Shown: in pieces, positions 5,035-33,263 of the stretch
How the letters are laid out: every line of letters begins with the position of its first letter
How positions within the stretch are numbered: position 1 is the first letter of the stretch
Assembly: GCA_965246805.1 (NCBI GenBank)
Contig: CBDFFO010000010.1
Span: 181,409-245,408, forward strand
DNA: 64,000 nucleotides
DNA from: Caldimonas sp.
GTDB lineage: Bacteria; Pseudomonadota; Gammaproteobacteria; Burkholderiales; Burkholderiaceae_C
Reading direction: 5' to 3'
Position numbers and translations under genes: made by a program
The notes under the pieces: model-generated
Databases searched by the model: none
Seen by the model: the letters and a program-made list of their open reading frames with translations, nothing else
What the model was told of the DNA's origin: nothing

Positions 5035-6033
5035 TCAGACCGGCGGCTGGGCCGCCAGCCAATCGACGTAGCGCGCCACGCCGTTCTCGACCGAGACGAA
5101 GTCGTGCCCGCATCCCGCGGCGCGCAGCCGCGACAGATCGGCTTCGGTGAAGCTCTGGTACTTGCCGACCAGGGCAGCCGGGAACTCGATGTACTCGATC
5201 GCGCCGAGCCGGACCAGGTCGCCGAGCGACATCGCGTGCTCGCCGTCGAGCGCGCGTTGCGCGTTGACGACCGCGACGGCCACGTCGTTGAACGGCTGCG
5301 CGCGGCCGCTGCCGAGATTGAAGATGCCGCTCGCTTCCGGGTGCTCGAGGAACCAGAGGTTCACCGCGACGATGTCGTCGACGTGGATGAAGTCGCGCGA
5401 CTGCTGGCCTGCCTCGTAGCCGCCGTACGGGCCGAACAGCCTGACGTTGCCGCTGTCGCGCAGCTGATTGAAGTGGTGGAACGCGACCGACGCCATGCGG
5501 CCCTTGTGCTGCTCGTGTGGCCCGTACACATTGAAGTAGCGAAAGCCGGCGACCTGCGCGGTGCAGGCCGGCAGCATGCGGCGCACCACGTTGTCGAACA
5601 GCAGCTTCGAGTAGCCGTAGACGTTGAGTGGTTGCTCGAACGCCGGCTCTTCGCGAAAGGTCGAGCTGCCGCCATAGGTGGCTGCCGACGACGCGTAGAG
5701 CAGGCGTGTGCCGCGCGCTTGGGCCGCGTCGAGCAAGTCTTTCGAGCAGCGGTAGTTGGTGTCGAGCATGTAGCGACCGTCGTGCTCCATCGTGTCGGAG
5801 CACGCCCCCTCGTGAAAGACCGCGTCGACCCGGCCGAATTCGCCGCGCGCGAAGCGTCCGTAGAACTCGCTGCGGTCGAAGTAATCGACGAGGCGCGCGC
5901 CCACGAGGTTGCGGTATTTGGTGCCGTCGGTGAGGTCGTCGACCGCGATGATGTCGTCGATGCCGATCGCGTTCAGCCCGTGCACGAGGTTGCTGCCGAT
6001 CATGCCGGCCGCGCCGGTGACGACGACCTTCAC
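5035..6033 (-). CDS. rfaD: ADP-L-glycero-D-manno-heptose 6-epimerase
   Basis: [13 protein letters not shown]-binding motif, [28 protein letters not shown] start overlaps the rfaE1 stop. Confidence 0.96.
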
Positions 6034-15573: not shown

Positions 15574-18269
<2,696 letters not shown>

Positions 18270-20771: not shown

Positions 20772-21145
20772 GGGGCTGACCTGGCTTCGACGAGGGTTCG
20801 GAGTTGGAACAGTGCACGCCGAGCACCAGTTCGCTCGTAAATCCACTGGAAACAAAGTAACTGCGAACGATCAAACGTACGCTCTCGCCGCTTAAAACCG
20901 GTGAGCTTCGCAACAGTTGGCCGATGGGCTGGGTCTGAGGGGTAAAACCCGAAAGACTGCGAAGTCATACACATGGGCTCGTCCGGCGTCGCGTCATTCG
21001 GCGTCGGATCAAATCAAGTGAATCGGGATGACGGTAGCGTGCTGCTGCGCGACCGGCCTCCTTAAAACCAAATCAGTCAGCTAAGCGTGTAGATCTGCCT
21101 GACGATGGCTTTCGGACGGGGGTTCGATTCCCCCCAGCTCCACCA
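20772..21145 (+). ncRNA. ssrA: tmRNA (ssrA), tag peptide ANDQTYALAA at 20863-20895
   Basis: 5' GGGGCTGACCTGGCTTCGAC, 3' GGTTCGATTCCCCCCAGCTCCACCA, internal tag ORF ending ALAA-TAA. Confidence 0.97.
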
Positions 21146-21176
21146 GACTAGGTTCCGAACGGGAGCGCAAGTGACC

Positions 21177-21212
21177 AAGGCCCTAAGCAAATCAACGGCT
21201 TAGGGCCTTTTT
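21177..21212 (+). terminator. Rho-independent terminator downstream of ssrA
   Basis: AAGGCCCTAAGC-N9-GCTTAGGGCCTT followed by TTT. Confidence 0.85.
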
Positions 21213-21227
21213 CACGTCCACATGCGA

Positions 21228-21317
21228 CCGGGTAACAGCGCTTGCATCTTGCTGCGGACCGGGTAACATACCGGGTAACTCATCTCATGCGGCCTTAGGC
21301 GGCAGAAAGTTACCCGG
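21228..21317. repeat. Left-end integrase arm-type repeats CCGGGTAAC
   Basis: Direct copies at 21228, 21259 and 21271; inverted copy GTTACCCGG at 21309-21317. Confidence 0.75.
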
Positions 21318-22615
21318 TGGCAGCGACAGACATCTTGAGCGACAAGGCAGTCAAGGCGGCGCTGAAAGCGGCCGTCGTGGGTGGCAAGACGCGCAAGATC
21401 AGCGACGGCGGCGGCCTCTATCTGGAAACCCGCCCGACCGGCGCGGGCTGGTGGCGCCTTCGGTACTGGATCGACAGCCGCGAGGGGATGCTCAGCCTGG
21501 GCACCTACCCGGCGGTCACGCTCGCCGAGGCCCGCGAGCGCCGTGACGAGGCGAAGCGCCTGATCGCCTCGGGCGTCAACCCGAGCGACGCACGGAAAGA
21601 CGACAAGGCTCGCCGCGATCACCAGCGCAAGACTTTCGCGATGGCCGAGGCAGGCTTGGCCGTCACCGGCTCATTCGAACAGGTCGCCCGCGATTGGCTC
21701 ACGACAGTTCATGAGTCGAAGGTGAGCGCGGGACATGCCGAGCGCACCCGGATCCGCTTGGAGCAAGACGTTTTCCCGTGGCTCGGCAAGCGACCCATCA
21801 ACGAGATCGAGGCGCCGGAGCTGCTGGCCTGCCTTCGCCGTGTAGAAGCTCGCGGCGCCATCGAGACTGCCCACCGCATCAAGGACGCCTGCGGCCAGGT
21901 GTTCCGCTACGGCATCGCGACTGGTGCGTGCCAGAGAAACCCCGCCGCCGACCTACGCGATGCGCTCCGCCCGGTGGAGACACGGCACCTCGCTGCGATC
22001 GTCGAGCCGGTGAAGGCGGGCGCATTGCTGCGCGACATGGTCGGCTACGAGGGCCACCCTGTAACGCGCGTGGCGCTGGCGCTGTCGGCGCTGCTGCTGC
22101 TGCGCCCGGGAGAGCTGCGGAACATGGAGTGGGCTTGGGTGAACTTCGACTCATCGACCCTGACCGTCCCTGCGGAGGTCATGAAGCGTTCGAAGGCCGA
22201 CAAGGCCGGCGGCCCGCCGCACCTCGTGCCCCTCGCACCGCAGGCCGTGGCGCTGCTGCGCGATCTCCAGCCGCTAACCGGGCATGGCCGGTACGTCTTC
22301 CCGTCGCTGCTCACCGGCGAGCGCTGCATGAGCGAGAACACGGTGAGGAGTGCTCTGCGCCGCATGGGTTACAGCAACGACGACATGACCGCACATGGCT
22401 TCCGCGCAATGGCCCGCACCATGATCGCGGAACGATTGAACGTGGGGCCTGAAGTCATCGAGGCGCAGCTAGCGCACACGGTATCTGACTCGCTTGGCCG
22501 GGCCTACAACCGCACGCAGTACCTCGACCAACGCCGCGAAATGATGTCGACCTGGGCTGACTATCTCGACCGCCTACGCGCTGGCGCGCAAGTGGTGCCG
22601 CTCATGGTCGCCTGA
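21317..22615 (+). CDS. int: P4-like tyrosine integrase with arm-DNA-binding domain
   Basis: N-terminal DGGGLYL...W.LRY...LSLGTYP.VTLAEAR; catalytic R (LLRPGE), HGFR, QLAH, AYN. Confidence 0.95.
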   Translation: MAATDILSDKAVKAALKAAVVGGKTRKISDGGGLYLETRPTGAGWWRLRYWIDSREGMLSLGTYPAVTLAEARERRDEAKRLIASGVNPSDARKDDKARRDHQRKTFAMAEAGLAVTGSFEQVARDWLTTVHESKVSAGHAERTRIRLEQDVFPWLGKRPINEIEAPELLACLRRVEARGAIETAHRIKDACGQVFRYGIATGACQRNPAADLRDALRPVETRHLAAIVEPVKAGALLRDMVGYEGHPVTRVALALSALLLLRPGELRNMEWAWVNFDSSTLTVPAEVMKRSKADKAGGPPHLVPLAPQAVALLRDLQPLTGHGRYVFPSLLTGERCMSENTVRSALRRMGYSNDDMTAHGFRAMARTMIAERLNVGPEVIEAQLAHTVSDSLGRAYNRTQYLDQRREMMSTWADYLDRLRAGAQVVPLMVA

Positions 22616-24377: not shown

Positions 24378-24510
24378 CGGTAGCGGGGGGAGAAGCCGGG
24401 CGTAATTCGCGTGCGTTTGCCCCCCCGGTGAAAAGCATCGTTTATCGGCCGTGAAAGGTGACCCACCAGCGGCCACCCACCGGCCAAAGTCACTTCCATC
24501 GCAACTGCGC

Positions 24511-24849
24511 ATGGAGCCTCAAGTGAACCCAAGACGAGAACAGAACCCGGTCGTTCGGCCGGTGCCGACCCAGCTAGCAGACGTTGCGCTGCTCGACATC
24601 AACGACCTGCGAGCCGCGGTCAGGATGTCCGCAAGCTGGGTGCTGGAGGAAGTTCGGTCGGGTCGATTCCCGGCACCGGTGATTCGGCAGTCACGCTGCA
24701 CACGGTGGCGCGCCTCGGATGTCCGCGATTACCTGATCAAACGTGCGCAGACCGTCGACATAGCTGCGGCCGAGACGGTGACCGCTCGGGCGAAGAAGGC
24801 CAGCGCAGCGGCGCAGGTCAAGCGTGTCGCGGCAGCGGCCGAGCAGTGA
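24511..24849 (+). CDS. alpA: AlpA-family transcriptional regulator / excisionase
   Basis: DINDLRAAVRMSASWVLEEVRSGRFPAPV...RWRASDV. Start uncertain (24451 or 24511). Confidence 0.8.
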   Translation: MEPQVNPRREQNPVVRPVPTQLADVALLDINDLRAAVRMSASWVLEEVRSGRFPAPVIRQSRCTRWRASDVRDYLIKRAQTVDIAAAETVTARAKKASAAAQVKRVAAAAEQ

Positions 24850-25194: not shown

Positions 25195-25622
25195 GCGGCG
25201 CAATCGATTTGCTGCTGTCAAGGCTGCCCGACCACAAGCCCACCGGCCGAGATCGCTGGCGTAGCGGATGCCCTGTCTGCGGCGGAAGCAGCAAGTCCGC
25301 GCTATCGATCGGCATCGGGGACACCGGAGCGGTCCTGGTCACTTGCTTCAAAGGGGGCTGCGGTCCGGACGAGATCGCGGGAGCGGTTGGACTTGTGATC
25401 GAGGATCTATTCCCGCCTCGTGAGGCCGCTGGTCGACCATTGGCCCGTCGCCGAATGATCAGCGACAGACAGGCGCTCGATCTGATGCACGAGGAATCCA
25501 ACTTGGTCTTCGTCGCCGCCGCCAACATCGGCAACGGTATCGAGCTCACCGATGTTGACCGTGCGCGCCTGCTGCAGGCCGCTGCGCGGATCGCTTACTT
25601 GCGCGAAGAGGTCATGTCTTGA
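25191..25622 (+). CDS. Primase-type zinc-binding domain protein
   Basis: WRSGCPVCGG...LSIG...VLVTCFKGGCG, typical of primase Zn-finger N-termini in satellites. Confidence 0.75.
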   Translation: MSGAIDLLLSRLPDHKPTGRDRWRSGCPVCGGSSKSALSIGIGDTGAVLVTCFKGGCGPDEIAGAVGLVIEDLFPPREAAGRPLARRRMISDRQALDLMHEESNLVFVAAANIGNGIELTDVDRARLLQAAARIAYLREEVMS

Positions 25623-26914
25623 GCCGCTACGCAAATGGTTCTGGCGCCGCTGCCGTTGATGGCGCGATCAAGGTCCGTGGTGGTGCGGCTCCGGTAGTTG
25701 CGCGACACCAAGGGGAGCCCACTGGGGAAGCGATCGCCGTTCGGCTGGTTCGAGGCGACACAGTGACGCTGGAGCCCGTGCGCTGGTTATGGCCGGGCTT
25801 CCTGCCCGCGGCCATGCTGACGATCTTGGGCGGCGCTCCGGGCTGTGGCAAGACCACCATCGCGCTGTCGCTCGCGGCCACCGTCAGCAGCGCCGGCACC
25901 TGGCCCGGTGGTGTGACTCGCGCAACGGCGGGCGACGTGCTCATCTGGAGCGGCGAGGATGCGCACCCGGTACTCGCCGCCCGTCTAGCAGCTATGGGCG
26001 CCGACATGAAGCGCGTTCATTTCATCGACGGCATTTCCGGCAGCGAGGGCGAGGCGTTCGACCCCGGCCGAGATATGCCCCTTCTTGAAGCGGCGGCTGT
26101 GCGGCTCGTGGCGCCACGGCTGCTGATCCTGGACCCCATCGTGTCGGCGGTCTCAGGCGACTCGCACAAAGGCGCCGAGGTGCGCAGATCGCTCCAGCCA
26201 GTGGTGGCCCTCGCCCAGCGGCTCGGGTGCGCCGTGGTGGGCGTTACGCACTTCAGCAAGGGCACAGCGGGCCGTGATCCAGCGGAACGCATCACCGGAA
26301 GCATCGCGTTCGCCGCCCTTGCGCGGCTGGTGCTCGTGGCCGCCAAGGTGCAAGCCGATGAGGGCGGAGAGCCGAAGCGCGTGCTGGTGCGGGCGAAGTC
26401 CAACATCGGGCCGGACGACGGCGGGTTCGCCTATTCGCTCGATCGGGTGATAGTGGCTCCCGAAGTCGAAGGGCAGCGAGTTCTGTGGCTGGAGGCGCTG
26501 GAGGGTTCGGCGCGTGATGTGCTCGCCGAAGCGGAAGCCAATCCCGAGGGCAACGAGGAATCGTCTGCGCTGGACGAGGCGATCGAGTTTCTCGAGTCCG
26601 AGCTGGCGTATGGGGCGAAGCCGGTGATGGAGATTTACCGGGAGGCGCGGAGGTCTGGGCACAGTGATCGAACTCTCAAGCGAGCCAAATTGCAGCTCAG
26701 CGTCGCATCACTCAAGGAAAAAGCGGGCTGGGTGTGGCATCTGCCGTCCAAGGGTGCCAAGGGTGCCAACAGTGCCAAGGAAACCAGGCATGAAGCACAC
26801 GGCCCCCTTGCCGAAAACTTCAAGGGTGCCAGCGAATCACCCCTTGGAACACTTGGCCCCCTTGGCCCCCTTGGCCCCCTTGGCCCCCTTGCCGATGATG
26901 GCGAGGTGTTCTGA
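25619..26914 (+). CDS. AAA_25/RepA-like RecA-fold replicative helicase
   Basis: EPVRWLWPG, Walker A GAPGCGKT, Walker B LLILDP, HFSKG, R..GSIAF..LAR, KSNIG. Confidence 0.88.
   Translation: MSRYANGSGAAAVDGAIKVRGGAAPVVARHQGEPTGEAIAVRLVRGDTVTLEPVRWLWPGFLPAAMLTILGGAPGCGKTTIALSLAATVSSAGTWPGGVTRATAGDVLIWSGEDAHPVLAARLAAMGADMKRVHFIDGISGSEGEAFDPGRDMPLLEAAAVRLVAPRLLILDPIVSAVSGDSHKGAEVRRSLQPVVALAQRLGCAVVGVTHFSKGTAGRDPAERITGSIAFAALARLVLVAAKVQADEGGEPKRVLVRAKSNIGPDDGGFAYSLDRVIVAPEVEGQRVLWLEALEGSARDVLAEAEANPEGNEESSALDEAIEFLESELAYGAKPVMEIYREARRSGHSDRTLKRAKLQLSVASLKEKAGWVWHLPSKGAKGANSAKETRHEAHGPLAENFKGASESPLGTLGPLGPLGPLGPLADDGEVF
26748..26893. repeat. Inverted arrays of 9-bp repeats (putative iterons/ori)
   Basis: About 4 copies of CCAAGGGTG on + (26748-26780) facing 6 copies of CCCCTTGGC (26840-26893; reverse complement GCCAAGGGG). 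Confidence 0.7.
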
Positions 26915-27387
26915 TGGGAGCGCCGGACCTGTTGACGTACCTACGCGATGCGGGGTTTGCGGTCGCGCTGGTCGGCGGAGGAATTCGAGTGGCGCCGGCC
27001 GCCGCACTGACCGACACCGATCGAGAGGCGATCAAGGCACACCGTGGTGAACTGCTGGCCCTGCTGGCGCCCGTCCGAAAGGAACCCATTGCGCTTTCAG
27101 AACCCTGGACGGACAGCGACGCCGCGAAATTTGTCGACCGACGCGACCGGCTGACCCGATGGGGGTGGCCGCTTGCCCAATCTGAGGCAATCGCTGATCG
27201 TCTTGTACGTCGCGATCAGGAAGGTGATGACCGCCGGATGTGTGTCGAGTGCAGCCATCTCGGCGAACGTGGGCGATGCCTGGCCGCAGCGGCGGGGCGT
27301 TTGAGCGGCACCGACCGACGACACGAACCCGTGCCCGACATCCTTCAGCGCTGCGAAGGCTTCGGCCTAAGGAAGGGACTCACATGA
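26914..27387 (+). CDS. Hypothetical protein typical of satellite replication modules
   Basis: TGATG coupling to the helicase; DRRMCVECSHL...RC Cys cluster. Confidence 0.65.
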   Translation: MGAPDLLTYLRDAGFAVALVGGGIRVAPAAALTDTDREAIKAHRGELLALLAPVRKEPIALSEPWTDSDAAKFVDRRDRLTRWGWPLAQSEAIADRLVRRDQEGDDRRMCVECSHLGERGRCLAAAAGRLSGTDRRHEPVPDILQRCEGFGLRKGLT

Positions 27388-27399
27388 CGCGACAGCCCC

Positions 27400-27681
27400 A
27401 TGCCTAGCGTCAACCGCCCCCGCATCGACTGGATGCCCGGCAAAGCCGCCCAAGCCGCCTTGCGAACGGCCGAACAGCGACGCCCGGATCTGCGTCAACA
27501 AGCGCTGATCGACTGGATCGTCATCGTCGGCGTGTCCGCGATCGAGCACCATCCCTGGTGTCCCCCCGCTCTGCATGGCCGCAACCGTGACACCTGGATC
27601 GCACGGCCCGCCGCACTCCCGGTAGACAGCTGCGCCACGCATACCGAAAAGCGAAAGGCACCGGGAACGGACACGAGCTGA
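27400..27681 (+). CDS. Hypothetical protein (93 aa)
   Basis: ORF in the same operon direction; no motif recognised. Confidence 0.45.
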   Translation: MPSVNRPRIDWMPGKAAQAALRTAEQRRPDLRQQALIDWIVIVGVSAIEHHPWCPPALHGRNRDTWIARPAALPVDSCATHTEKRKAPGTDTS

Positions 27682-27730
27682 AGGTCGCCCGTCGACATTG
27701 CTCCGCATTCACCCACGTTGCGGAGCGCAT

Positions 27731-27931
27731 ATGCAGACACACGAAGCCGAACCACTGCTCAAGCCCGAGCAGGTCGCGCAACGACTTGCGATCGCGGAGA
27801 GCACTCTGAACGTCTGGCGCTGTACCGGTCGTCAGCAACTTCCCTTCATCAAGCTCGGTTCGAGCGTCCGCTACCGCGCTTCGGACGTGGACGCATTTGT
27901 CGAGAGCCGTTTGCATGACGCCCGCGTCTGA
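27731..27931 (+). CDS. HTH_17/MerR-like excisionase-type DNA-binding protein
   Basis: LLKPEQVAQRLAIAESTLNVWR...LPFIKLGSSVRYRASDVDAF. Confidence 0.85.
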   Translation: MQTHEAEPLLKPEQVAQRLAIAESTLNVWRCTGRQQLPFIKLGSSVRYRASDVDAFVESRLHDARV

Positions 27932-28514
27932 GATTGGGCGCTCCGAAGACGGGCGTTCCAAAGTTGAACTCGTGACCGCTGGGGTGGACGTCGCTCCGGT
28001 CCTCTGGGCGTTGCGAGCGAATCCTGGTCTATGGACTCATGCCGAGACCGCCAAAGGTCGGGCCACTCCACGTTACGACGCGATCTGGGTCCGCTCCGCT
28101 GCCATGGGTTCGGATATCGGGACGCCAACAGAATCGAACTGGTACCCCACGGCTGACGCGGTGCCCCTGCGCGAACTGGTCTACCCCCTGATGGGCCTTG
28201 TCGGGGGCGTCCTGTTGGGGGGCGTCGTGATCCACAAGGTTCCTGCCCACACGACGACCAAGCCCCACATCGCAACAGGTCAGCAGGGCCGCTGCTTTGA
28301 CACGTTCGCGATCCAGATCGATTGCGCGCCCGGCCAGCTTCTCTGCTACGAGGACAGGCGACAGGAATCAAAGCCCGGTGACGCGTACTACTTCAACGAC
28401 TCGTATCGGCACTGGATAGAAAACCCGACGCCGTTTGACCGCATCACGGCGCTGGTCTCGATCCGGACCGAGCGCAAGGCCAACGCCGGACGACCGGCTC
28501 CGGTTTGTCACTGA
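27915..28514 (+). CDS. Aspartyl/asparaginyl beta-hydroxylase-like (2OG-Fe cupin) phage-type protein
   Basis: GVDVAPVLWAL, DAIWVR, LGGVVI.KVP...KPH, FAIQI, PGDAYYFN...HWIEN...DRIT. Confidence 0.7.
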   Translation: MTPASEIGRSEDGRSKVELVTAGVDVAPVLWALRANPGLWTHAETAKGRATPRYDAIWVRSAAMGSDIGTPTESNWYPTADAVPLRELVYPLMGLVGGVLLGGVVIHKVPAHTTTKPHIATGQQGRCFDTFAIQIDCAPGQLLCYEDRRQESKPGDAYYFNDSYRHWIENPTPFDRITALVSIRTERKANAGRPAPVCH

Positions 28515-28951
28515 TGAACATCGTGATCCACGAGAGCTTCGCCAAGCTCACGGGCATGAAGGCGACTCGGTTCGAGCGGCGCGAAAAGATCGCCCACGCT
28601 GAAACCGAGGCCAGAGCGCTGGCGGTGATGTTTCCCTTCGAGGAAACCGCCGAGCACCACTTCGCACCTGGCTTGTACGCACGCTCGCTCTTCATGCCAG
28701 CTGGCTCGACCGTCGTCGGGAAGATCCATCGGCACGCGCACATCTATGTCGTGTCGGGCCATTGCTGGATCTACAACGAGATCGACGAGCACGAGGTGAA
28801 AGGCTTTGAAGTTCGCACCGCCGTACCTGGCGAGAAGCGCTTCTGGCATGTGCTTGCTGACACATTCATCGTGGGCTTCCATCCCACGACCGAGACCGAT
28901 CTGGAAAAGATCGAAAACGACGTGATCGCTAAGACTTACGAGGTGATGTAA
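28514..28951 (+). CDS. Phage-type cupin-fold protein
   Basis: HHFAPGLYARSLFMPAGSTVVGKIHRHAH, a motif that I recall precedes ejection genes in podoviruses; TGATG coupling. Confidence 0.7.
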   Translation: MNIVIHESFAKLTGMKATRFERREKIAHAETEARALAVMFPFEETAEHHFAPGLYARSLFMPAGSTVVGKIHRHAHIYVVSGHCWIYNEIDEHEVKGFEVRTAVPGEKRFWHVLADTFIVGFHPTTETDLEKIENDVIAKTYEVM

Positions 28952-30115
28952 ATGTGGGTTGCCGTAGGAGTAGGGGCTGCCAGCACGGTGGCCGGCATGA
29001 TTGGCGCCAGCAAGGCCGCCAAAGGTCAACAGCAGGCCGCCAATCAGGCCATCGCGGCCCAGCAGGCCCAGTACCAGCAGAACCGCACCGACAACCTACC
29101 CGCGCTCGATGCCCGCAACAACTCACTGATGATGTTGCAGCAGAAGGCCGGCCAGTACAGCGCAGCCCCGACCGCCGACCAAGTGATGGCGACCCCGGGT
29201 TACCAGTTCGGGCTGAACCAGGGCAACAACAACATCGAGAACAGCGCCGCATCCCGAGGCGGCCTGTACTCGGGTGCGGCCGGCAAAGCACTGACCCGCT
29301 ATGGCACTGACTACGCAACGACGAAGTATCAGAACGCCTTCGACAACCTTCAGACCTCGCAGACCAACGACTTCAACCACTATCTGAACATCGGCAACCT
29401 GGGCCAAGCCGGCGCTAGCAGCATCGCCAACGCTGGCCAGAACATGGTCAACGCGAACAATCAGACCTTGATGAGCAATGCGAACTCTCAAGGCGCCGCC
29501 AACATCGCCCAGAGCAACCTCATTGCTGGCGGGCTGAACCAGTTCGGGAGCTGGGCCAAGTCCCCCAACGGGCAAGACGCACTTGGTGGTCTCGGCGATC
29601 GCATCGGCGGGTGGTTCGCACCTTCCAACAGCAACGGCAGCGTGATCTCCAACTCGCCGACCTACATCGACCCCAGTAGCAAGTACGCGCAGAACGGATC
29701 GGACTTCGGCTGGAATCCGATCAAGCGTGCCGATGGTGGACCCGTGCGAGCTGAGCCAGTAGTCGGATCGCGGTCCCCTGTCCGGACGGGTGGAGGCGGT
29801 GGCTTCTCCCCCAATGCCCTGCTCGCGCTGGTGATGGCTCATCAGCTCCCGCAAACTCAAACAGCACCAGGCGGCGACTACCTCATGAACCCCGGTCAGA
29901 TCGTTGATCAGCGGATGCGGCAGGCCGGTGCATACGCCATGGGCGGCGCAGTGCATGGCCCTGGCGGTCCTCGGGACGACCTCATCCCGGCGCAGTTGTC
30001 ATCGGGCGAACACGTTTTCGATACCGCGTCGGTCGACGCCGTCGGTGGTGGCGACAACGAGGTCGGGCAGAACAGGCTGAACAAGCTTCGCGAGATCCTC
30101 AAAAACCGCCGCTGA
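28952..30115 (+). CDS. Podovirus-type DNA ejection/pilot (P22 gp7-like DNA transfer) protein with C-terminal extension
   Basis: Hydrophobic Gly/Ala N-terminus, Gln/Asn-rich body, PGYQFGLNQG...SAASRGGLYSGAAGKAL.RYG.DYA, C-terminal GGAVHGPGGPRDD.IPA.LS.GE.V. Confidence 0.7.
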   Translation: MWVAVGVGAASTVAGMIGASKAAKGQQQAANQAIAAQQAQYQQNRTDNLPALDARNNSLMMLQQKAGQYSAAPTADQVMATPGYQFGLNQGNNNIENSAASRGGLYSGAAGKALTRYGTDYATTKYQNAFDNLQTSQTNDFNHYLNIGNLGQAGASSIANAGQNMVNANNQTLMSNANSQGAANIAQSNLIAGGLNQFGSWAKSPNGQDALGGLGDRIGGWFAPSNSNGSVISNSPTYIDPSSKYAQNGSDFGWNPIKRADGGPVRAEPVVGSRSPVRTGGGGGFSPNALLALVMAHQLPQTQTAPGGDYLMNPGQIVDQRMRQAGAYAMGGAVHGPGGPRDDLIPAQLSSGEHVFDTASVDAVGGGDNEVGQNRLNKLREILKNRR

Positions 30116-30117
30116 AC

Positions 30118-30291
30118 ATGCCGACGATCGAAACGAGGCTCGCCAGGCTGGAGGCGCCGCACATCCAAACCGGGCCGGTGTTGATCATGGTGAGCGACGA
30201 ACGCACTCCAGAGCAGGAGCAGGAGATCAGGTCCGCCCGGGAAGCAGGTAGACCGATCGTCTTCGTGACGGCCATCGATTGGGATCTGTGA
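30118..30291 (+). CDS. Microprotein 1 (57 aa, MPTIETRLARLE...)
   Basis: Translated by hand (below the ORF-track cutoff); starts 2 nt after the previous stop. Confidence 0.6.
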   Translation: MPTIETRLARLEAPHIQTGPVLIMVSDERTPEQEQEIRSAREAGRPIVFVTAIDWDL

Positions 30292-30360
30292 GTCCCGGCA
30301 TGCAGCCTCCCACGGTGCAATGAGTTATCAGGTCGCCCTGATCGAGCAGATGAGGAACAG

Positions 30361-30777
30361 ATGAAAGAAGCCGGTCGGTTTCAGCCAGGCCAGAGTGGCA
30401 ATCCCAAAGGGCGACCACCGGGCGCCGGTCAGCTGGGCACCTTGCGCGCGTCGATCGTGGCACACGTCCCCGAGATCGTGGCCAGGCTGGTTGACGCTGC
30501 GAAGGCCGGTGATGTTGGCGCTGCACGCCTGCTCCTAGAGCGCGTGTTGCCCGCTGTGAAGCCGATCGAGCAGGAAGTCGTGATCGCGTTGCCTACGGGC
30601 TCCCTGACCGATCAAGGTCGAGCCGTGCTCGCCGCCGCTGGCGCTGGCGAACTGGCAACGGGACAAGCCGCCCAGCTGCTGACCGGCCTGAGTTCGCTCG
30701 CCAAGCTGGTGGAGACGGACGAACTGGCAGCACGCATCAAGGCACTGGAGACCCGCGATGGCAACGTTAAGAGCTAG
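30361..30777 (+). CDS. DUF5681-type terminase-small-subunit-like protein
   Basis: GRFQPGQSGNPKGRP motif, AARLLLERVLP; RBS GAGGA upstream. Confidence 0.75.
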   Translation: MKEAGRFQPGQSGNPKGRPPGAGQLGTLRASIVAHVPEIVARLVDAAKAGDVGAARLLLERVLPAVKPIEQEVVIALPTGSLTDQGRAVLAAAGAGELATGQAAQLLTGLSSLAKLVETDELAARIKALETRDGNVKS

Positions 30778-30934
30778 GCTCGAAGAGCTGGAGCAGCAGC
30801 GCGTGTACGGTGACGTGCGGGACATGCCGACACACGAACTCGAACGACTCCTCGTGCTGCACTATGGGTACCTACCGGATGTGAGCGAGTTGCAGCGAAT
30901 CGTCGAGCAGGACAGAGCAAATGGCGACGCTTGA
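30758..30934 (+). CDS. Microprotein 2 (58 aa, MATLRARLEELE...)
   Basis: Translated by hand; overlaps both neighbouring genes. Confidence 0.55.
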   Translation: MATLRARLEELEQQRVYGDVRDMPTHELERLLVLHYGYLPDVSELQRIVEQDRANGDA

Positions 30935-31166
30935 CAAGCGGCTTCAGGAGCTGGAAAAGGCAACCTCGCCAGCCGTGCGGTTCACCATGATCGTTTGCAA
31001 GATCATCGACGTGGGGCGACTGGGCGAGGAGGGAACCCGGTGTGCCTTCGGCGACCGGGAATGGCGACGGGCTCATGACGAGTCTGAAGAGCAGTTCCTT
31101 GGCCGCGTGCAAGCGCAGATCGAATCGCCGAACCGCTTGCCGCGGGTCTTGCTTTACTCAAGCTGA
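30921..31166 (+). CDS. Microprotein 3 (81 aa, MATLDKRLQELE...)
   Basis: ORF track; N-terminus resembles those of microproteins 1 and 2. Confidence 0.6.
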   Translation: MATLDKRLQELEKATSPAVRFTMIVCKIIDVGRLGEEGTRCAFGDREWRRAHDESEEQFLGRVQAQIESPNRLPRVLLYSS

Positions 31167-31199
31167 AATGAGTGCCTGGCGGGTTCTTGCCGGATGCGC

Positions 31200-31818
31200 C
31201 TACTTTGTGATCAAACCTGTTTTTGGAAATTCCATAGGCCCAGTTTTCGGGTCGAAGATGCCGTAAGTGACTACCTTTGCTTTCTCGAACTGGTAGAAGG
31301 TGTTGTACTTGTCGAAGCTCAAGATTTTCTGCAGCCCGTCTTGCGTTGTCGAGACGTGCGATGGCTCACCAAGAACCTGGATTACGTACCCAATTTCCAT
31401 GTCCTTTTTAAAGTCCTGCAAATAGGGGTGAACCGTTTCTTCGTCGAGCGCCATATATTCGACGTACCTGACGTTGTCCCCTCTAAACCGAACAACGATG
31501 AAGGACTTGGTGTCGGCAGACCTATAGATCCATTCGTCCTTGTTATCTTCCGGAATTATCGACGGTTCGCCTTTGGCAAACCTCACGTCAGACCGGCTCG
31601 CGTGGAGCGGAACGTCGAAGAAAGTGATCTGAGGTCTGGGCCGCCCAGCGTACTGGACATACCCCCAAGTGCCAAGGCCTCCGAAAGCCGCGACTAAGAG
31701 CAGCGCGAGGATCATCCTTGCCAAGTCGGCTCCAGTTCCAACGATCCTTGGTCACCGCATACAGCATCACGATGGCCAAGACGACCGATGACATGAAGAT
31801 TCCAGAGCCTATGGTCAT
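31200..31818 (-). pseudogene. Membrane-anchored hypothetical protein split by a frameshift near 31722
   Basis: Frame A MTIGSGIFMSSVVLAIVMLYAVTKDRWNWSR continues naturally into frame B (L)ARMILALLLVAAFGGLGTWGYVQY...; one extra base at the junction. Confidence 0.6.
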
Positions 31819-31950
31819 TTGGGGATCCCGTTCACGATGGGCGAGCTACCTGTGCGCACGAATATCCGTTCGCCCCATACGTCGCGTTTGTGATTCAGAT
31901 GGCCGCCGACAACTCGCTCTTCCCCACTGCGCGTCGTCGTGCAGGGATCA

Positions 31951-32478
31951 CTAAGAAAACCTCTTAAACAACAGACACCCTAAGACAAAGACTACGGGGG
32001 ACAGCAATAGGGCGACGCGAACTAAGTTGATCGCCAAAGCCTTTTTCGCGATCCAGTCACTGCTGTCCTTCAGGCGGTCTGTAATGTTGAGTATTTCGCC
32101 ATAGCGCACTTCGTCGATTGACCGGTGCGGTTCATCTAGAAGGTTTGCAGCCTCTTGGTATGGCGCCGGGTACTCGCGAATGAAGAATGTCTTCCAGACC
32201 AGTAGTAGTCCGAGCAACACAAAGTACCCGCAGAGAACGATCGTGCCGAACAACAGCGTGTCTAGCGTGCGTTCAAGCCCAGGCAATATGTAGACGAACG
32301 TGCCTCCCATACCGGCCAAAACATAGGTCAACGTGGTTTGAGCTTCTTTGCCCATGTTGTCTGCCGTGGTGAACTTCTCCTGCAGGTTCTTGAGGCCGTT
32401 CTCTTCCGCCCACTTGAGTCTGTCCGGCCAGCTCTCATGCCGAGTCCTCACGGTTCGATAGCTTGTCCGCTGTGCCAT
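31951..32478 (-). CDS. 3-TM membrane protein, lower GC (candidate defence effector)
   Basis: Three hydrophobic segments; ADNMGKEAQTTLTY before TM1; acidic loop before TM3. Confidence 0.7.
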   Translation of the reverse strand: MAQRTSYRTVRTRHESWPDRLKWAEENGLKNLQEKFTTADNMGKEAQTTLTYVLAGMGGTFVYILPGLERTLDTLLFGTIVLCGYFVLLGLLLVWKTFFIREYPAPYQEAANLLDEPHRSIDEVRYGEILNITDRLKDSSDWIAKKALAINLVRVALLLSPVVFVLGCLLFKRFS

Positions 32479-32483
32479 AGCTG

Positions 32484-32612
32484 CTAAGCCTTTTTGATTG
32501 CCTTCTTCGTCTTCCCAGGTTGCTTGGGTCTGTAGACCCCTTCGGTCGACTTCTTTGCCGGTGCCTTTCTGGCCACCGACTTCTTGGCTGGCGCTTTCTT
32601 TGCGGGTGCCAT
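32484..32612 (-). CDS. 42-aa Lys-rich histone-H1-like microprotein (MAPAKKAPAKKSVARKAPAKK...)
   Basis: Translated by hand; AAGGAAG RBS upstream; stop lies 5 nt before the 3-TM gene start. Confidence 0.6.
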   Translation of the reverse strand: MAPAKKAPAKKSVARKAPAKKSTEGVYRPKQPGKTKKAIKKA

Positions 32613-32801
32613 CTAGGTCTTCCTTGTCGGAGTTTCGTGCTTCACTGTCCGCGCGGGCTGCCGCGGGCGAAAAGGCGCCGGAGGCGGGGATGATGGAGGG
32701 GTGGGGGCGGTCGCGGCACTGTGCATCTGTGTTCCTTTTAAGGCGTGGCTGATGTCATGCGCGCAAATACATCCACATGCGCACATCATGCAGAGAGACG
32801 A

Positions 32802-32819
32802 TACTGTATAAACGTCCAG
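32802..32819 (+). promoter_or_regulatory. Putative LexA (SOS) box
   Basis: TACTGTATAAACGTCCAG = CTG-N10-CAG with the canonical TACTGTATA half-site, directly before GTG 32820. Confidence 0.65.
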
Positions 32820-33263
32820 GTGGACTTCTTGGTTACGCGAGTTTTCGACGGAGGCAGGGTGATGCCCGGCCACATCCGGAATGCCACGACCGTACGCGGC
32901 CGACTGTCGGTCGCCCAGGAGGAAGATGCGCTGCGGCGCCGGACCGTCCTCGTGGCTCGCTTCACCCCGGCCAAAGGGAACGGAACGTTAATGCAGAGGC
33001 TGCCCCCGCTTTACGACGTGCAGTTGATCTCGCTGAATGGTGAGGTGATGACGCTCGCCGGATATGAGCGTGTCGTGGCTGGAGTGCTGCAGCAGGACTA
33101 CGTGCTCGGGCAGAGCTGGATCGTCACGCCCGGCCCCATTGAAGACCTGATGCACGCCGAGGCGCAGTGGCGCGATGCAGCTGAAAAGATCGTCGAGCTT
33201 CAAGCACAATTGCAGACAGGAGAGGCGGCCCGAACTGGTTCACGCGTCGAGCCGCTTGGGTAA
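32820..33263 (+). CDS. Hypothetical protein, putatively SOS-regulated
   Basis: VDFLVTRVFDGG...LPPLYDVQLI...LAGYER...QSWIV; start inferred at GTG 32820. Confidence 0.6.
   Translation: MDFLVTRVFDGGRVMPGHIRNATTVRGRLSVAQEEDALRRRTVLVARFTPAKGNGTLMQRLPPLYDVQLISLNGEVMTLAGYERVVAGVLQQDYVLGQSWIVTPGPIEDLMHAEAQWRDAAEKIVELQAQLQTGEAARTGSRVEPLG

Follow-up and report, generated by a model that had tools for sequence, protein, structure and literature searches.

We found that three short genes in a 64-kb window of a Caldimonas sp. contig (the window being the whole stretch of DNA analysed) belong to the terminal module of an island of the PICI/P4 type that is integrated at a tmRNA gene, and that such modules hold a large, fast-turning-over set of microproteins in which one N-terminal tag is joined to many unrelated small domains. 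All three genes lie on the forward strand and begin with ATG: ORF57 (57 aa; 30118-30291) opens with MPTIETRLARLE (30118-30153), ORF58 (58 aa; 30758-30934) with MATLRARLEELE and ORF81 (81 aa; 30921-31166) with MATLDKRLQELE. These are the N-termini that a first-pass annotation of the DNA had quoted, and it had also correctly noted that two of the three are under the ORF cutoff; with a cutoff of 60 aa, these are ORF57 and ORF58. The pattern MxT[LI]xxRLxxLE describes the starts of all three. When the six-frame translation of the window was searched for xT[LI]xxRLxxLE, four matches were obtained, three of which are these starts; because the motif is so rare there, their agreement is not due to chance. 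Further, the GC2 (0.34-0.47) and GC3 (0.68-0.79) values of the three ORFs display the same coding pattern as those of the neighbouring genes. We conclude that ORF57, ORF58 and ORF81 are genuine, translated-looking genes.

The integration site of the island is a tmRNA gene (20772-21145, forward strand), which was located with ARAGORN and matched Rfam RF00023 with 196 bits. Downstream on the same strand lie a P4-type tyrosine integrase with Arm-DNA-bind_3, Phage_int_M and Phage_integrase domains (21317-22615), an AlpA-like HTH_17 regulator recognised by domain match, relatives of which match Phage_AlpA (24451-24849), an AAA_25 (RepA/DnaB-like) replicative helicase conserved in related loci (25619-26914) and a conserved 157-aa ORF that directly precedes the DUF5681 gene in canonical relatives (26914-27387); a second HTH_17 protein was identified by domain match at 27698-27931. 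An inserted virion-like module follows (28505-30115, forward), consisting of a short-tail-fibre-like gene (28505-28951; phrog_12032) and a DNA-ejection-like gene (28952-30115; phrog_598), and gave tblastn matches to ejection proteins of small podoviruses. Ejection-protein-like genes were also seen just upstream in several relatives. In common with PICIs, the island has a site-specific integrase at one end beside a tRNA/tmRNA gene (relatives adjoin tRNA-Pro, Leu, Arg, Phe or tmRNA), a regulator of the AlpA/MerR/Stl type, represented by the HTH_17 proteins, and a primase-replicase module, for which relatives pair a Toprim_3/DUF7146 primase with an AAA_25, DUF3987 or DUF927 helicase; the gene order (integrase, AlpA-type regulator, primase/helicase, small-terminase-position gene, accessory genes) is likewise that of PICIs. 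In contrast to PICIs, no capsid-morphogenesis (size-redirection) gene was found by Pfam or PHROG match among the island ORFs, and tail-fibre-like and ejection-like genes are present; other phage structural or lysis genes are absent from the canonical relatives, not from the window element. No attR copy of the tmRNA 3' end in direct orientation was found, which leaves the right-hand boundary undefined. Only one close relative was detected among IMG/VR viral contigs.

The first-pass annotation had suggested a motif search near DUF5681 genes and a check of conservation in related elements, and both turned up tagged ORFs in abundance: 75 of 82 related betaproteobacterial loci encode 1-5 small tagged ORFs after the DUF5681 gene. 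In 1.24 Mb of sequence from these 82 loci, 163 ORF starts match a relaxed form of the motif, and 146 of them are on the DUF5681 strand and no more than 1.5 kb downstream of that gene. The microprotein genes are coupled to DUF5681 by overlap in dozens of species. In the window, the last 20 nt of DUF5681 are also the first 20 nt of ORF58 (30758-30777, forward), an arrangement suited to translational coupling, and ORF58 ends and ORF81 begins in the stereotyped 14 nt ATGGCGACGCTTGA (30921-30934, forward). Among the related loci, a 14-nt ATG...TGA overlap of this kind was seen at 45 of the 67 first junctions and at 33 of the 66 later ones. A GGAG Shine-Dalgarno sequence stands 8-11 nt 5' of the ATG in related loci, and at 8 nt for ORF58. 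Across 152 tagged ORFs, conservation is high over the first 12 residues and collapses after the tag, and the bodies that follow fall into ~59 unrelated C-terminal clusters. We therefore regard the ORFs as bearing a common tag and not as full-length paralogues, so that the paralogy proposed earlier for the three window ORFs holds for their first 12 residues and fails downstream, where they represent three different families. The arrays also change quickly, their Jaccard similarity being only 0.38 between loci with 80-90% DUF5681 identity. Tandem paralogues within one locus occur.

The three bodies in the window illustrate this diversity. The portion of ORF57 after the tag has a strand-helix-strand-like pattern as read from its sequence. 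The gene starts 2 nt past the stop of a 387-aa gene upstream and is coupled to the end of the virion-like module. Homologues with the same N-terminus and a length of 57-58 aa were found in a search of 1.84e9 representatives, and the family has 25 members in related loci; two giant Calx-beta proteins that also matched ORF57 were judged spurious, the similarity being of a repeat/compositional kind. In ORF58, the tag precedes a segment of the form M[PST]D.EL...G..P..EL, which appears helical, and its weak relatives occupy the first place after DUF5681 in four loci (L003, L004, L007 and L061). In ORF81, a flexible linker connects the tag to a small domain of predicted beta-beta-beta-alpha-beta topology with a conserved signature, W..R..[GD]E[ST]E..F..R, in the family alignment from 25 loci. 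A homologue search with the single ORF81 sequence returned only itself, so a profile from the related loci was required; this gave 173 homologues, of which the 120 listed are 71-97 aa long and have no Pfam domain. The neighbourhoods of two members of this family, four places in all, show the gene immediately downstream of DUF5681 once more, and the 14-nt overlap with it. The AF2 model of ORF81 (mean pLDDT 84.6) places a helix at residues 2-14, followed by a low-confidence linker and a separate domain, and a Foldseek comparison of the model with the PDB gave no neighbour at E <= 0.001. Scans against Pfam, PHROG (150 microproteins for both), PADLOC and NCBIfam revealed no family shared by the microproteins. 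When 50,697 phage records were searched by tblastn with two members of the microprotein families other than the window sequences, no real match resulted.

The consensus of the tag across the array proteins spans 12 residues, M-x-[TSN]-[LI]-x-x-R-[LIV]-x-x-L-E, with an extra hydrophobic residue three positions ahead of the Arg. The core R-[LIV]-x-x-L-E exactly matches a motif published as directing short parallel coiled coils to trimerise, Arg(g)-h(a)-x-x-h(d)-Glu(e), where h(a) is I, L, V or M and h(d) is L, I or V, and which is exemplified by coronin-1, ccbeta and GCN4p-M3 (PMC3653964). The window contains four copies: RLARLE (ORF57), RLEELE and RLQELE in the microproteins and RIKALE in the DUF5681 protein. 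In the 152 ORFs, h(a) is L in 45%, I in 39% and V in 16%, and h(d) is L in 94%; the invariance of the Arg and the Glu in this set is preset, as the search pattern demanded both. In the PDB, the tag sequence had no significant match, and its best-scoring ones were mostly three-stranded coiled coils, designed or natural. The helix predicted by AF2 at residues 2-14 of ORF81 bears out the earlier view that the common N-terminus is a real conserved helix. Like the known R-hxxhE coiled coils, the tag thus combines an Arg, an Ile, Leu or Val, two free residues, a Leu and a Glu in a segment predicted to be helical; unlike them, it spans only ~12-15 residues and stands at the N-terminus of many unrelated microproteins as well as at the C-terminus of one putative partner.

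That partner is the DUF5681 protein (138 aa; 30361-30777, forward; Pfam PF18932, E 9.6e-12), which occupies the small-terminase position of the island. As noted in the first-pass annotation, it contains ELAARIKALE, which we located at residues 121-130 (30721-30750) ahead of an 8-residue tail; its nine residues LAARIKALE (30724-30750, forward) have the pattern L-x-x-R-h-x-x-h-E, which also occurs in the microprotein tags. The C-terminal motif is present in 76 of 76 loci, mostly 6-7 residues ahead of the stop, and among 26 homologues D120, L122, R125, L129 and E130 are invariant. The AF2 model (mean pLDDT 83) consists of helices only, the C-terminal one being long (residues 100-132). A homologue search gave 2597 proteins, and no longer DUF5681 homologue is a C-terminal fusion. 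We also considered whether a +1 frameshift could fuse DUF5681 to the first microprotein and rejected this, since the Arg-to-Arg spacing would be 14 or 15 residues depending on the locus, with no consistent heptad phase, and no fused homologues exist.

Whether the DUF5681 protein is a small terminase, as the first-pass annotation had proposed in calling it TerS-like, is a separate matter. The protein resembles phage TerS in its slot in the island, its size of ~140 aa, its predicted helical content and its predicted long C-terminal helix of an oligomerisation type, and TerL and portal are immediately preceded by a DUF5681-domain gene in a single lineage of uncultured podoviruses. It differs from TerS in that no PDB TerS was matched by fold (Foldseek, E <= 0.001) or by sequence, in that its PHROG matches are families of unknown function and in that the DUF5681 gene of Felixounaviruses is not adjacent to TerL. 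Against BFVD, the model gave only weak matches, to unnamed proteins, DUF5681 proteins and phBC6A51-type homeodomain proteins, and a tblastn search of 50,697 phage records with the window protein turned up no real match. The designation has island position and synteny in one podovirus lineage in its favour, while no TerS family, fold or PDB match was found and the synteny is contradicted in Felixounaviruses, and we consider a small-terminase identity only partly supported, the case for it being one of position.

Taken together, the conserved helix, the trimerisation motif, the copy of this motif at the C-terminus of DUF5681 and the translational coupling make it reasonable to read the tag as a docking or oligomerisation helix, a reading made at the level of sequence. 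We propose that the tag would serve both purposes, most likely by packing in parallel with the DUF5681 C-terminal helix into mixed three-stranded coiled coils. Such packing would place the variable domain of each microprotein at the end of the DUF5681 chain, where it could serve as a replaceable C-terminal module, attached non-covalently to a core that would bind DNA and resemble a small terminase. The modules might contact packaging or virion proteins of the helper phage, for example TerL, TerS or portal, and the contact may redirect packaging to the island, block packaging of the helper, or both; the fast turnover of modules would then represent adaptation to different helpers. We hold only tentatively, and at somewhat short of even confidence, that exchangeable microproteins dock onto DUF5681 to exploit or block helper phages. 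Against this reading stand the uncertain TerS role of DUF5681 and further observations. First, a helix of 12-15 residues is short for an autonomous coiled coil. Second, no covariation was found at the 'a' position between the DUF5681 motif and the motif of the first microprotein. Third, ORF57 and its relatives in loci L001 and L032 lie upstream of DUF5681, not downstream. A more specific version, to which we give rather little weight, is a split modular small terminase, in which DUF5681 would supply the DNA-recognition core and a trimerisation helix and the microproteins, a quickly exchanging library plugged in through R-hxxhE, would each supply a different helper-binding module (for example, for TerL).

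The docking reading invites comparison with the PICI packaging redirectors Rpp and Ppi, to which a functional analogy had been drawn. Rpp forms a heterocomplex with the helper TerS (Fillol-Salom 2019, PMC6739421), and the proposal made here would be the same in kind, with small proteins acting on a packaging complex. As to similarity, none to Rpp or Ppi emerged: the DUF5681 profile and those for the three families of microproteins retrieved no significant natural PDB protein (E <= 0.001), and no Rpp entry was among the PDB matches listed for these profiles. Neither the PICI literature consulted (PMC6739421 and PMC10085698) nor our searches yielded a polymorphic microprotein array that shares a coiled-coil tag with the protein in the TerS position.

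Alternatively, the microproteins may be stand-alone homotrimeric accessory effectors (anti-defence, helper-interference or host-benefit cargo) in which the tag serves self-trimerisation only and there is no physical link to DUF5681. This is a possible explanation, on the unlikely side in our estimation. Their place after a terS-like gene is the usual accessory slot, as PICI accessory genes are commonly found after terS in the SatelliteFinder survey (PMC10085698), so that position alone is no proof of a packaging role. Further, R-hxxhE by itself specifies homotrimers in model peptides (PMC3653964), and the extreme C-terminal diversity (59 clusters), the fast turnover and the tandem paralogues in one locus are typical of arms-race cargo. 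However, stand-alone effectors do not account for R-hxxhE being invariant at the far C-terminus of DUF5681 as well, for the stereotyped overlap coupling to that gene or for the fact that almost all elements have one or more tagged ORFs, with no regard to the kind of body; one N-terminus would not be expected among unrelated cargo, and neither the three window microproteins nor the window DUF5681 protein had a PADLOC match.

By analogy with the internal proteins of phage T4, the tag could instead be a delivery signal with which microproteins are loaded into helper capsids and injected with the island DNA. In T4, the capsid-targeting sequence is a short conserved N-terminal peptide on polymorphic, fast-evolving, tandem-encoded small proteins; it is a protease-processed leader, and T4 builds its own prohead. 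The arrays are alike in having a single conserved N-terminus of ~12 residues on many polymorphic, tandem-encoded small proteins, and the coupling of ORF57 to the DNA-ejection-like gene and the similar genes upstream in several relatives would fit delivery. They differ in that the island has no prohead protease, scaffold or capsid gene, and in that the tag, held in common with a putative DNA-binding protein, is a textbook coiled-coil determinant and not a protease site; a leader would also be senseless at the C-terminus of DUF5681. We thus judge capsid delivery improbable.

We give still less credence to the notion that the N-terminus is a by-product of DNA-level constraint (overlapping frames, re-initiation signals or a cassette-exchange recombination site) and has no function in the protein. 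The 14-nt overlap does partly fix residues 1-5, with codon 4 ending in T and codon 5 starting with GA, AA or AG, and it also dictates upstream C-termini such as HGNA and HAKP. R-hxxhE, however, lies beyond the overlap, at nt 19-36, where third-codon positions in the related loci are nearly random (~0.1-0.2 bits), and it is kept where there is no overlap, in ORF57 and at junctions spaced by +9 to +57 nt. The free third-codon positions largely refute this explanation and rule out a recombination site conserved at the DNA level. That the ORFs are unexpressed chance frames in GC-rich DNA, for which their shortness (57-81 aa), the lack of database names for the window sequences and a search for RNA-seq runs that found none might speak, is scarcely credible and is refuted by conservation, since 75 of the 82 species-level loci have homologous ORFs in this place, and is at odds with the codon periodicity, the Shine-Dalgarno sequences, the 173 homologues of the ORF81 profile and the confidently predicted fold of ORF81.

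The elements described here make up a large PICI/P4-like island family in Betaproteobacteria for which we found no description, with 80 species-level genomes and with DUF5681 homologues that number in the thousands in metagenomes, and its signature is a polymorphic microprotein array with one coiled-coil tag in common with the protein in the terminase position. If the tag docks, it would provide a satellite with a new and simple plug-in way to diversify its helper-phage interface and would represent a naturally occurring hetero-oligomerisation tag of minimal size (12 residues); if, further, the split-terminase version is true, swapping cassettes could enable one satellite to hijack or jam several helpers. 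As regards annotation, many array genes are short, two of the three in the window falling below a 60-aa cutoff, and the family members retrieved have neither a name nor a Pfam domain; the tag together with the fixed 14-nt overlap is an easy rule by which such genes can be found.

Three small ORFs around a putative terminase gene, named here by their length in amino acids, had been described in the first-pass annotation as paralogues with a common N-terminal pattern. These are ORF57 (30118-30291, + strand; N-terminus MPTIETRLARLE), ORF58 (30758-30934, + strand; N-terminus MATLRARLEELE), and ORF81 (30921-31166, + strand; N-terminus MATLDKRLQELE), and the gene between them encodes a 138-aa DUF5681 protein (30361-30777, + strand; Pfam DUF5681, E 9.6e-12) with the sequence ELAARIKALE eight residues ahead of its stop. 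The common pattern was borne out: xT[LI]xxRLxxLE has four matches in the six-frame translation of the 64-kb window, three of which are the starts of these ORFs. The term "paralogous" fits this N-terminal tag but not the bodies, which differ among ORF57, ORF58, and ORF81. The GC1/GC2/GC3 profile of each ORF is that of the adjoining genes. An upstream 387-aa gene ends 2 nt ahead of the ORF57 start. ORF58 shares its first 20 nt with the end of the DUF5681 gene and has a GGAG 8 nt 5' of its ATG, and ORF81 in turn shares its first 14 nt (ATGGCGACGCTTGA) with the end of ORF58.

For the DUF5681 protein, 2597 homologues were retrieved at E <= 0.001 (60-76% identity among the matches listed), and scanning a single genome per species with a profile yielded 80 loci, mostly labelled Betaproteobacteria. 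We scanned 82 loci (1.24 Mb) in six frames for ORFs of 40-140 aa with h-x-x-R-h-x-x-h-E within six codons of the start. This gave 163 matches, of which 146 share the strand of DUF5681 and lie no more than 1.5 kb past the stop of that gene and 6 lie just upstream; most of the other 11 lie in second copies of such elements. At least one downstream tagged ORF was present in 75 of the 82 loci, and, where enough downstream sequence was available, the arrays had one to five members, with a single locus having none. In a reverse search with two ORF81-family members (P0242 and P0151), every neighbourhood retrieved placed the gene directly after DUF5681 with a 14-nt overlap. We conclude that the tag is a family-wide feature of these loci.

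In short coiled coils, the motif Arg(g)-h(a)-x-x-h(d)-Glu(e) directs a parallel arrangement of three strands by way of a bifurcated Arg-Glu' salt bridge (PMC3653964). Judged by its sequence, the invariant tag core, Arg-[L/I/V]-x-x-Leu-Glu, is an exact instance of this trimerisation motif, and a conserved Leu/Ile three residues ahead of the Arg occupies the preceding d position. An AF2 model of ORF81 (46-sequence alignment; mean pLDDT 84.6) has a helix at residues 2-14 joined by a low-confidence linker to a separate beta-beta-beta-alpha-beta domain. The top-ranking PDB sequence matches to the tag are for the most part three-stranded coiled coils, but no match was significant. The C-terminus of the DUF5681 family carries the same nine-residue motif; it was seen in every one of 76 loci, most often 6-7 residues ahead of the stop. 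Residues D120, L122, R125, L129, and E130 are invariant among 26 homologues, and the motif ends a long helix (residues 100-132) in the predicted model (mean pLDDT 83). In the longer DUF5681 homologues examined, the extension is N-terminal, never C-terminal. The interpretation in the first-pass annotation gains partial support: a coiled-coil docking helix is likely, and the partner interaction and Rpp-like function that it proposes are candidates.

Past the tag Glu, conservation drops sharply; Pro and Gly are commonest 4-5 positions on, at only ~15% each. When 158 proteins were clustered without the tag, they fell into 59 clusters. The ORF57 family (n=25) has the tag followed by "lvl.v.D.pTpEQ…I..A…Gr.vivf", and the ORF81 family (n=29) has the signature W..R..[GD]E[ST]E..F..R. 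A profile of the latter retrieved 173 homologues, and the 120 listed are 71-97 aa long, with no Pfam domain or informative name among them. ORF58 has weak relatives only, 28-36% identical, which take the first position past DUF5681 in four loci (L003, L004, L007, and L061). Where DUF5681 proteins are 80-90% identical, the mean Jaccard index of array family content was 0.38, and where they are 70-80% identical it was 0.21; array turnover is much faster than that of DUF5681. No Pfam or PHROG family was common to the 150 microproteins scanned, family representatives had no homologue in 50,697 phage records, and no related solved structure was found for the microproteins. Two giant Calx-beta repeat proteins (P0123 and P0124) match the ORF57 body (residues 14-54; E 9e-7 and 7e-6), each of them over four stretches, which we judged a probable repeat or compositional artefact.

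Conserved among these loci is an array of polymorphic microproteins whose genes are in translational coupling with one another and with DUF5681, and what reads as a trimerisation motif stands at the extreme N-terminus of all microproteins and at the extreme C-terminus of DUF5681. We tentatively favour a reading in which the tag would be a helix for oligomerisation and docking. If it packed in parallel with the C-terminal helix of DUF5681, the variable domain would project from precisely the point at which the DUF5681 chain stops, and the microproteins would be exchangeable, non-covalent C-terminal modules on a DNA-binding DUF5681 core. Such modules may, further, engage helper packaging or virion proteins, with turnover tracking helper diversity. 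The main alternative, which we consider somewhat doubtful, is that the microproteins are self-trimerising accessory effectors merely occupying the usual cargo slot after terS; against it stand the tag common to the microproteins, its match in the DUF5681 C-terminus, and the presence of one or more tagged genes in nearly every element. The remaining explanations are less likely or already refuted. Capsid delivery by the tag, in the manner of the T4 internal proteins, is a reading that we consider improbable.

Gene junctions follow a stereotyped layout. At 45 of 67 junctions between DUF5681 and the first ORF, and at 33 of 66 later ones, the overlap is 14 nt (ATG n8 TGA/TAA/TAG). This overlap accounts for tag residues 4-5 (codon 4 ends in T; codon 5 starts with GA, AA, or AG) and for C-termini that recur among the upstream proteins (…HGNA, …HAKP, and …NGND). 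However, the R-hxxhE core lies beyond the overlap and is kept also where the overlap is absent; an overlap constraint or a DNA recombination site is therefore insufficient for the motif, and we regard a DNA-level origin as very improbable. When 152 distinct gene starts were aligned on the tag Arg codon, codon positions 1 and 2 were conserved and position 3 carried ~0.1-0.2 bits, with a GGAG peak 8-11 nt 5' of the ATG. We conclude that the tagged ORFs are coding and constrained at the protein level; that they are non-coding chance ORFs is scarcely credible.

The description of DUF5681 as TerS-like is plausible but not established. In its favour, the gene stands at the terS position of a PICI-like island, its weak BFVD matches include DUF5681 and phBC6A51-type homeodomain proteins, and one lineage of uncultured podoviruses (nine IMG/VR contigs) has a DUF5681-domain gene directly upstream of TerL (Terminase_6N and T7 RNaseH-like domains) and portal genes. 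No homologue of the TerL or portal of this lineage (L083-L091) was detected in any related island locus. Against a TerS identity, no TerS match was found in the PDB by fold or by sequence, and the PHROG matches are families of unknown function. In Felixounaviruses, the DUF5681 gene adjoins a DUF2828/DUF7788 gene, annotated "RNA-binding protein" in FelixO1-like myoviruses, and not TerL (Salmonella phage BPS17L1, L101 3998-5866, and 76 other Felixounavirus-type records), so that adjacency to a terminase gene is not a constant feature of DUF5681.

The island in the window begins directly after a tmRNA gene (20772-21145). A second ARAGORN "tmRNA*" call (21052-21654), which overlaps the integrase start and lacks Rfam support, is probably a false positive. 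The gene order is P4-type integrase, several ORFs of unknown function, AlpA-like HTH_17, AAA_25 helicase, a conserved 157-aa ORF, a second HTH_17 protein, a short-tail-fibre-like gene (phrog_12032), a DNA-ejection-like gene (phrog_598), ORF57, DUF5681, ORF58, and ORF81. Strand and GC content shift past 31166, and the right border is undefined because a search for an attR repeat of the tmRNA 3' end gave no copy. GC falls to 0.55-0.57 at 31000-33000, where two minus-strand ORFs, one with a weak sub-threshold BamE match (31200-31724) and one resembling a membrane protein by eye (31951-32478), have no homologues in related loci. ORF57, ORF58, ORF81, and DUF5681 had no PADLOC match, and the sole NCBIfam match among the window proteins scanned was a far sub-threshold DnaB for the AAA_25 helicase. 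The C-terminus of this helicase (26840-26891) contains a 9-nt tandem repeat (x4) encoding (GPL)n, …GPLGPLGPLGPL…, which may be a slippage-prone linker ahead of the overlapping start of the 157-aa ORF. The latter (26914-27387) has a weak TubC_N docking-domain match and a Cys-rich C-terminus.

PICI-type satellite architecture has been described (PMC10085698), and the related elements match it, without a capsid-morphogenesis gene. In called-gene neighbourhoods, the canonical element starts at a tRNA or tmRNA gene and continues with integrase, AlpA, primase (Toprim_3/DUF7146), helicase (AAA_25, DUF3987, or DUF927), a ~150-aa ORF, DUF5681, and small ORFs. In the canonical relatives shown, the ~150-aa ORF is directly upstream of DUF5681, and homologues of the 157-aa ORF are detectable in five loci; in the window, a ~3-kb insertion (27400-30291) with ORF57 at its end separates the two. 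The window island is PICI/P4-like in kind and shows four of five core PICI features if DUF5681 is accepted as the small terminase; it, too, has no capsid-morphogenesis gene by Pfam or PHROG, and it breaks the "no structural genes" rule. The role proposed for the microproteins would be Rpp-like in kind, Rpp acting on the packaging complex (PMC6739421); profiles of DUF5681 and of the microprotein families gave no significant match (E <= 0.001) to a natural PDB protein, with no Rpp entry among the matches listed, and we do not assign the microproteins to that group. Neither a tagged microprotein array nor a match between such a tag and the DUF5681 C-terminus was found in the literature searched.

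The short-tail-fibre-like and DNA-ejection-like genes of this satellite-type island (28505-30115), the latter with a C-terminus resembling a tape-measure protein, have their closest relatives in small podoviruses of ~36-38 kb (Rhodoferax phage P26218 and Vibrio phage VvAW1). They may point to the type of helper, or such satellites may provide their own ejection proteins. Ejection-protein-like genes upstream of DUF5681 are carried by the window element and a few relatives (L001 4277-5740; L027 about 15850-16450; L046 about 5400-6030); three other loci (L013, L082, and L097) have large ORFs at this position with no detected ejection-protein similarity. In Piscinibacter koreensis (L001 9460-9978), a 172-aa ORF that looks restriction-endonuclease-like by eye lies between the ORF57-like gene and DUF5681, and a 292-aa ORF of PAPS-reductase/DndC-type appearance, also by eye, is directly 3' of a tagged ORF in L017 (10666-11544). 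Further cargo past the arrays includes DUF3800 and Sel1-repeat proteins (L093 and L098).
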